A stretch of DNA of 64,000 bases from Chlamydiales bacterium (GTDB taxonomy: Bacteria > Chlamydiota > Chlamydiia > Chlamydiales > JAAKFR01). Positions 32,677 to 33,302 of this stretch are shown here, in pieces. Each line of letters begins with the position of its first letter. The stretch's first letter is position 1. The notes beneath the pieces were generated by a model. That model was given only the letters and a program-made list of their open reading frames with translations, did no database searches and was not told the DNA's origin. A program made the translations under genes and the position numbers. The DNA is taken from NCBI GenBank assembly GCA_022601535.1, contig JAJACK010000001.1, positions 724,893-788,892 of the forward strand. Direction: 5' to 3'.

Positions 32677-33302
32677 TAATAGCTAGCCTTAGTAAAACCA
32701 AACTATATGCGGGAAAGCCCTTAAGCTTTTCGGTACTAGCCACGTCTGTGGCAGTAAAAATCTGAAAAGATTGGGTAATCCGCAGGAAAGATCAGAAATT
32801 ACTTCTGAAATCCTCAGAGACTACACGTTTGGAGTTTGCTATGAATCTACAAAGTGAATGGATTGTTGGATTCGTAGACGGAGAAGGTTGTTTCCACGTG
32901 GCGATTAATCGTCATCAGGAAATGACTCTCGGATATCAGGTTCTGCCTGAATTCACCGTCGTCCAACATGAAAGAGATGTTCAAATCTTGTACGCCTTGA
33001 AAAAGCACTTCGGTTGCGGAGTGGTTCGAGTGAATCACGGTGACCGAATGGCCTATCGAGTAAGAGGATTTGAACACTTAATGGAACGCATTGTTCCATT
33101 TTTTGAAAAACACCAGCTTAAAACAAAAAAGCGGGTTGATTTTCAAAAGTTTAGAAGAGTCCTTCTCATGGTTGAGAAGGGCAAACATCTGACTCCGGAA
33201 GGACTCGAAGAAATTCGAAGAGTGAAAGAGCAGATGAATAGAAGCAGACTATGATATAGTCCGACCTTCCAGGAAACTGGTAGGAGTGATCGAGCGAAAT
33301 TC
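32677..33302 (+). mobile_element. group I intron in 23S rRNA domain IV (after the U of ...CCUAAGGU, before AGCGAAAUUCC)
   Basis: The exon junction restores the universal sequence CCTAAGGT|AGCGAAATTCC. P1 helix: exon CTAAGGT (32670-32676) pairs with intron GCCTTAG (32686-32692), with a U.G at the 5' splice site. The intron ends in G (33302). It carries a LAGLIDADG ORF. Confidence 0.9.
32841..33254 (+). CDS. LAGLIDADG homing endonuclease (single-motif, I-CreI/I-CpaI-like), intron-encoded
   Basis: MNLQSEWIVGFVDGEGCFHV contains the LAGLIDADG motif. 137 aa, the size of homodimeric family members. The ATG at 32841 is preferred over the TTG at 32829. Confidence 0.88.
   Translation: MNLQSEWIVGFVDGEGCFHVAINRHQEMTLGYQVLPEFTVVQHERDVQILYALKKHFGCGVVRVNHGDRMAYRVRGFEHLMERIVPFFEKHQLKTKKRVDFQKFRRVLLMVEKGKHLTPEGLEEIRRVKEQMNRSRL

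Follow-up and report, generated by a model that had tools for sequence, protein, structure and literature searches.

In an uncultured chlamydia the only 23S rRNA gene is split by a group I intron that belongs to the L1931 lineage and is probably mobile; it has no P2, as in the IB4 type. The intron lies in a window of 64,000 nucleotides, the whole stretch of DNA that was analysed. An Rfam scan of the whole window showed a complete rRNA operon with the 16S (28829-30378), the 23S (30693-34250) and the 5S gene (34386-34500). The assembly has 1.57 Mb in 9 contigs, is 98% complete and contains one copy of the intron; no intron-less junction was found in it. This class of element is well known; its first description was from another chlamydial family than the one that contains the present host. 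The insertion site has the following features.

30693-34250, + strand: host gene, 23S rRNA (LSU_rRNA_bacteria, 2719 bits, full model, Rfam; sole 23S copy in the assembly)
32677-33292, + strand: group I intron at L1931 (616 nt; RF00028, 61.7 bits)
32670-32676, + strand: 5' exon end CUAAGGU, 5' strand of P1 (from the sequence; U32676 is E. coli U1931)
33292, + strand: omega-G, final base of the intron (from the sequence; invariant in 24 homologues)

A sequence-only reading of this DNA had described an interruption of the 23S gene by 626 nt that ends at 33302. The interruption was borne out, with the break directly after ...GGTCCTAAGGT (longer form ...ACGGTCCTAAGGT), whose last base is 32676. The end was wrong, since 33302 is a C that lies ten bases inside the 3' exon. 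The downstream exon AGCGAAATTCC (longer form AGCGAAATTCCTTGTCGGG) starts with base 33293, and the real intron of 616 nt ends at 33292 with a G, the final base named in that reading. When the intron was excised in silico, ACGGTCCTAAGGT was joined to AGCGAAATTCCTTGTCGGG, and the resulting 32 nt match the E. coli 23S exactly, which agrees with the claim that joining the exons restores the conserved 23S sequence. The 32-nt sequence occurs once in rrlH of E. coli K-12 (NC_000913.3) and its T is gene position 1931, as expected from the proposed insertion after U1931. In the ligated 23S rRNA, the spliced-exon junction is expected to read GGUCCUAAGGU joined to AGCGAAAUUCC. The annotation of the 23S gene in this genome should include the 616-nt intron and the homing endonuclease gene.

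The ribozyme was analysed with the Intron_gpI model of Rfam, a check that the earlier reading had proposed. In the whole-window scan RF00028 was matched over the full model (1-253) with 61.7 bits, above its gathering score of 50, and with E = 3.2e-13, and the intron alone scored 57.5 bits. The helices were placed from the Rfam alignment and local ViennaRNA folds, and they were compared in an alignment of 24 homologous introns from five chlamydial families.

32686-32692, + strand: internal guide GCCUUAG, 3' strand of P1 (from the sequence; 7 bp, with a wobble of G32686 and U32676)
32698-32703 and 32827-32832, + strand: P3, CCAAAC and GUUUGG (Rfam alignment)
32708-32713 and 32779-32784, + strand: P4, UGCGGG and UCCGCA (Rfam alignment; 6 of 6 pairs invariant in the 24 introns)
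32717-32776, + strand: P5 and its extension (P5 32717-32720 with 32773-32776)
32726-32731 and 32764-32769, + strand: P5a, within the nested P5 extension 32726-32769
32734-32737 and 32753-32756, + strand: P5b, within the P5 extension
32739-32743 and 32748-32752, + strand: P5c hairpin, within the P5 extension
32785-32787 and 32811-32813, + strand: P6 (Rfam alignment and fold; invariant in the 24 introns)
32792-32797 and 32803-32808, + strand: P6a hairpin (Rfam alignment and fold)
32817-32823 and 33257-33262, + strand: P7, guanosine-binding helix, GAGACUA and UAGUCC (A32818 bulged; conserved R and S elements, Rfam)
32835-32840 and 33243-33248, + strand: P8, UUUGCU and AGCAGA (Rfam alignment; three basal pairs conserved; the loop is the ORF)
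33265-33284, + strand: P9 hairpin (33265-33272 with 33277-33284; 8 bp, one U.U mismatch, GAAA tetraloop at 33273-33276)
32682-32684, + strand: candidate P10 guide GCU (by eye; complements AGC of the 3' exon, 33293-33295)

The pairing of the guide GCCTTAG (32686-32692) with the exon CTAAGGT (32670-32676), including the U.G wobble, had been noted before and was verified from the sequence. Two positions of the guide vary among the 24 homologues (C to U and A to G), and both still pair with the invariant exon. P2 is absent, as P1 and P3 are spaced by just 5 nt. By the architecture, this absence fits the subgroups IB4, IC2 or IA1 (PMC1995217), and introns at LSU/1931 have been classed as IB4 (PMC6125680). 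In P3, 99.3% of the cells are paired over the 24 introns, with one compensatory change of A-U to G-C. The ViennaRNA fold of the P5 segment gave the same nested helices at -24.5 kcal/mol, and compensatory changes were observed in P5 and P5c. Four pairs of P7 and its bulged A are invariant, and P9 shows compensatory changes at 7 of its 8 pairs. A P10 of just 3 bp may form between 32682-32684 and 33293-33295; its guide bases G6, C7 and U8 are each retained by 90% or more of the 24 homologous introns. Two other Rfam matches inside the intron, SraG (E = 0.09) and SMAD5-AS1 (E = 0.47), are weak and were taken as chance.

The P8 loop contains the following features of a putative endonuclease gene.

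32841-33254, + strand: ORF for a putative homing endonuclease, 137 aa, with one LAGLIDADG motif, IVGFVDGEGCF; in the P8 loop
32831-32834, + strand: GGAG, resembling a Shine-Dalgarno motif, 6 nt upstream of the ATG and overlapping the 3' strand of P3

The ORF and its single motif IVGFVDGEGCF had been read from the sequence, and both were recovered from the ORF list and with Pfam, where LAGLIDADG_1 (PF00961) matched residues 8-107 in one stretch (6.1e-26, 91.7 bits). The acidic Glu is present in the GEG position of the motif. The last codons of the ORF traverse the 3' strand of P8, and the TGA stop is located in J8/7. GGAG and ATG are conserved among the aligned homologous introns, and we infer that GGAG could function as the ribosome-binding site. 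A TTG start at 32829 was rejected because its upstream in-frame relation to the ATG is not conserved in the alignment, and the ORFs on the minus strand of the intron were taken as chance. In G011 (L006) and G021 (L009) the ORF meets no stop codon within the intron; it continues across P7, P9 and the 3' splice site as far as the 23S exon and encodes 180 aa; the C-terminus of the protein thus varies among lineages.

The best match to a solved structure was PDB 5gkk, a 'putative homing endonuclease' of 170 aa, which aligned to residues 1-134 of the window's protein (E = 3.5e-53) with an identical VGFVDGEGCF. A literature search for 5GKK gave no match, and NCBIfam has no model for the protein. With the two-domain enzymes I-SmaMI and I-OnuI, each half aligned to the whole window protein, as is expected for a single-domain enzyme that acts as a homodimer. 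The members of the I-OnuI and I-SmaMI family are two-domain monomers, whereas the single-domain protein of the window would have to dimerise. By these alignments the protein is a putative single-motif LAGLIDADG homing endonuclease that would work as a homodimer.

The distribution of the intron was followed by a protein search in 401 sampled genomes of the same order, which gave a match in 25. In 24 of these the gene is part of an insert that is directly flanked by CCTAAGGT and AGCGAAATTCC; the 25th match, in G210, has 34% identity and belongs to an L1923 intron instead. L1931 introns homologous to that of the window were thus found in 24 of the 401 genomes, in five GTDB families, and the intron-less junction was found in 137 of the 401, with an identical target sequence in all 137. 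Many of the remaining genomes have no assembled 23S gene. By family, the counts were as follows.

f1, the window's own GTDB family: L1931 intron in 9 genomes; empty junction in 4 of 28 searched
f43: L1931 intron in 11 genomes
f8: L1931 intron in 2 genomes; empty junction in 16 of 49 searched
f16: L1931 intron in 1 genome; empty junction in 0 of 5 searched
f5: L1931 intron in 1 genome; empty junction in 10 of 49 searched

G014 was counted twice in f1, with the intron and with an empty junction that is on a second contig. This intron-less 23S piece (contig C13, about 18969-19168) is 82-86% identical to the flanks of the window's intron and probably derives from a different organism that was binned with G014.

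The protein of G199 is letter for letter AAD38228.1, 'putative endonuclease homodimer [Simkania negevensis]', and is encoded in an intron of 658 nt. By this exact identity G199 is Simkania and f43 is Simkaniaceae, and the homology to the L1931 intron of Simkania negevensis, an intron that the sequence-only reading had mentioned for this site, is borne out. The 16S gene of the window is 87% identical to that of G199 and 94% to that of the nearest relative G014, and f1 is a separate clade in the 23S exon tree (support 100/99). The host is therefore a chlamydia outside Simkaniaceae. Among chlamydiae, the intron has been stated only for some Simkaniaceae (PMC6019428). The five GTDB families among the sampled genomes show a wider spread than that statement. 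The sequence-only reading had also called the intron a strong taxonomic marker, which fails: its occurrence in f1 is patchy (9 genomes with the intron, 4 empty, one with both), it is found in five chlamydial families, and a gammaproteobacterial copy is as similar as the chlamydial ones. Its statement that bacterial rRNA introns are rare holds for cultured bacteria only, since 4844 related proteins were found at E <= 1e-20 in a wide protein search.

The selection on the ribozyme was measured in the alignment of the 24 introns over 43 pairs with 1028 pair cells; the count excluded P5a and the upper part of P8, whose columns were shifted against each other by MAFFT gaps. Paired cells made up 96.4% of the 1028, compared to 33-48% in controls with slid partners. 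Changes on both sides were seen at 15 pairs, and none of 500 shuffles attained the values of the real alignment. No variation was seen in P4, P6 or the four pairs of P7 in the 24 introns; P5, P5c and P9 vary by compensation. At 21 single-stranded positions of the active site (J3/4, J4/5, J6/7, the bulged A, J8/7 and the terminal G) the majority letter was found in 97.4% of the cells, at the peripheral helices P5c and P9 in 72.1% and at the third codon positions of the ORF in 62.8%. For the endonuclease gene, the median dN/dS was 0.097 over 16 intact ORFs, with dS mostly saturated. Purifying selection acts on both the ribozyme and the protein.

Many genomes retain an intact endonuclease that is under purifying selection; in several Simkaniaceae, Simkania among them, it has decayed. 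The gene of G008 has stop codons, the Glu of the motif is lost in G279, G154, G190, G330, G299 and G363, and a deletion of 6 codons is found in G190, G330, G299, G363 and Simkania (G199). In Simkania (L037) the deletion was seen against the sister genome G179, and the motifs without Glu in other Simkaniaceae (L030, L029, L032, L033, L035 and L034) read VDGRG, VDGSG, VDAVG and VDANG. The ribozyme core was kept in all lineages with a damaged endonuclease. An intact core where the endonuclease gene has decayed points to selection on the ribozyme itself, as would be expected if failed splicing harms the ribosome. The pattern is as expected if the ribozyme must function in an essential gene and the endonuclease is kept only where homing pays. 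Taken together, the conservation and the dN/dS of about 0.1 favour a splicing-competent intron with a working endonuclease.

From these features we infer how splicing, endonuclease activity and present-day mobility would proceed. The intron would be transcribed with the rRNA operon and fold into the P3-P9 ribozyme core, and the guide would pair with the last seven exon bases to form P1 with its U.G wobble. An external guanosine held in P7 would attack after U1931. The terminal G would next occupy the P7 pocket and the exons would be joined to the universal helix 69-71 sequence. The 137-aa single-motif LAGLIDADG endonuclease of the P8 loop would be made from its own GGAG and ATG, and its homodimer would cut intron-less 23S rDNA at L1931, where repair would copy the intron in. 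The P10 of just 3 bp and the U.U mismatch in P9 speak against this explanation.

A genuine group I intron could also be never removed and stay folded in the mature 23S rRNA as a 616-nt insert beside helix 69, which we consider unlikely. The homologue at the identical site in Simkania reportedly remains unspliced, according to the title of the study by Everett et al. 1999, which later papers cite as the sole experimental statement on the Simkania intron, and the present analysis was of DNA. Retention would mean that working ribosomes in several chlamydial families have a ribozyme longer than 600 nt folded at the interface of their subunits, with a strong conservation that serves retention and not splicing, and this is similarly improbable. 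An insert at the ribosomal subunit interface should be costly. The strongest conservation is found on features that serve catalysis only, namely the guide with its compensating changes, the P7 pocket with the bulged A, J8/7, J4/5 and the terminal G, and it persists despite the decay of the endonuclease. Indirectly, the conservation of the catalytic core speaks against the unspliced state in the title on Simkania. Since the ribozyme is apparently selected for catalysis, the 'unspliced' report of 1999 is worth re-testing with RNA data. Two homologues of the endonuclease with 74-76% identity, the proteins P0039 (an MMETSP transcript) and P0087 (EukProt, Platyproteum vivax), were observed in transcriptome data of protists. 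They could be from chlamydial symbionts or organelles, and these transcripts might reveal whether such introns occur unspliced in RNA.

The descent of the intron was followed in trees of the introns and of the 23S exons. Among Simkaniaceae the introns branch in the same way as their hosts, and a large extra P6 insertion is common to these introns, which points to vertical descent in this family. Beyond this family the introns are poorly resolved in the tree. The intron of the window is 74.8% identical to that of a sister genus (G014) and 74.8% to that of another family (G207), and the intron-less G017 nests among intron-bearing relatives in the 23S exon tree. The best 120 of the 4844 proteins of the wide search are 72-81% identical to that of the window. 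One L1931 endonuclease with 79% identity is encoded in L045 (JAAEPN010001996.1), which is labelled a Gammaproteobacteria MAG and has a 23S that clusters with E. coli in the tree of exons; two other top matches are in chlamydial 23S genes. The L1931 intron of L045 nests among the f1 introns with a support of 94/83. The introns of L045 form a twin pair: the one at L1917 has 785 nt and a LAGLIDADG ORF of its own, and the one at L1931 has 667 nt. In the topology tests, monophyly of the f1 introns had a p-AU of 0.065, a clade of all chlamydial introns that excludes the gammaproteobacterial and cyanobacterial copies 0.086, and host-like placements of the window's intron 0.15 and 0.33. The clade tests gave no clear rejection, with one nominal p-AU of 0.047 for G005+G322. 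For the window's copy both vertical descent and transfer fit the trees. Transfer between hosts is suggested, and L045 hints at one between phyla.

A further point against the mobile intron is the one rRNA operon of the genome, which leaves the endonuclease nothing to cut in its own cell; to be maintained, it would have to profit from exchange of DNA among chlamydiae or have another function, for example as a splicing helper. The ribozyme might splice in an element that is immobile and only vertically inherited, with an ORF that is a maturase or has not decayed yet. This is an improbable reading. It is in line with the single rRNA operon and the intracellular lifestyle, with the intron tree mirroring the host tree within Simkaniaceae, and with the host-like placements of the window's intron, which were not rejected. 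A gene that has not decayed yet is ruled out by the dN/dS of about 0.1 with saturated dS. In several Simkaniaceae the catalytic Glu is lost or deletions have occurred while the ribozyme core is kept, so the protein is dispensable for the upkeep of the intron in these lineages. The gammaproteobacterial intron nested among chlamydial ones (94/83) and the intron-less G017 among bearers both fit gain and loss of the element. For the mobile intron that we prefer, the intact endonuclease and the one rRNA operon suggest DNA exchange between co-infecting chlamydiae, perhaps across phyla.

The least credible explanation is an assembly artefact that joined the intron of another organism of the metagenome at conserved rRNA sequence: rRNA operons are a frequent site of chimeric joins in metagenome assemblies, but this operon is internal to the 64-kb window and the record of its endonuclease places the protein on a contig of about 358 kb, the joined exon flanks (1000 nt before the intron and 900 nt after it) group with f1 and are nearest to G014 (94%), a homologous intron is present in eight further f1 genomes, and the assembly has no intron-less copy.

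The intron of the window was then compared with known systems. L1931 is the target site of I-CpaI. L1931 introns of Thermotoga, thermophilic cyanobacteria, green-algal organelles and Acanthamoeba mitochondria occupy the same site in other hosts and were likened by their description; the Thermotoga copies are said, by the title of the work of Nesbo and Doolittle 2003, to be actively self-splicing. The LAGLIDADG genes listed for these L1931 introns have a single motif and encode 140-170 aa (Haugen et al. 2007, PMC1995217). The IB4-type introns of archaea at LSU/1931 and LSU/1923 share the site and a LAGLIDADG_1 cargo but belong to another domain (Nawrocki, Jones and Eddy 2018, PMC6125680), and the CPR insertion 23IS7 at position 1931 likewise has the same site and a LAGLIDADG_1 cargo in another phylum (Tsurumaki et al. 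2024, PMC11270868).

The closest comparison is the L1931 intron of Simkania negevensis (AAD38228.1 / Q9X9Q2), which shares the site, the absence of P2 and the position of the ORF in P8. The two introns are 66.8% identical over 596 columns and the proteins 57% (E = 4e-47). The host of the Simkania intron is of another family-level lineage, with a 16S 87% identical to that of the window. The intron of the window has 616 nt and lacks the large P6 insertion of Simkaniaceae, whereas that of Simkania has 658 nt. The endonuclease of the window is of full length, whereas that of Simkania has the 6-codon deletion and other changes. In Simkaniaceae, the introns of G279 (L029, 873 nt) and G363 (L034, 979 nt) have an extra 150-300 nt, approximately, in the P5 extension and after the ORF.

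Some chlamydial relatives have twin introns at L1923 and L1931, separated by 8 exon bases, which resemble the archaeal LSU/1923 and LSU/1931 sites. In f8, G306 and G144 (L025) carry an ORF-less intron after U1923 (211 and 232 nt) and an ORF-bearing L1931 intron. The twins of G306 (L022:1102-1310 and L022:1321-1944) are both above the Rfam gathering score, with 68 and 51.8 bits. G210, of the same genus as G306 and G144, has the L1923 intron only (L038, minus strand, about 1363-2038 in reverse-complement coordinates) and no L1931 intron; its L1923 intron encodes its own LAGLIDADG protein, the one with 34% identity to that of the window.
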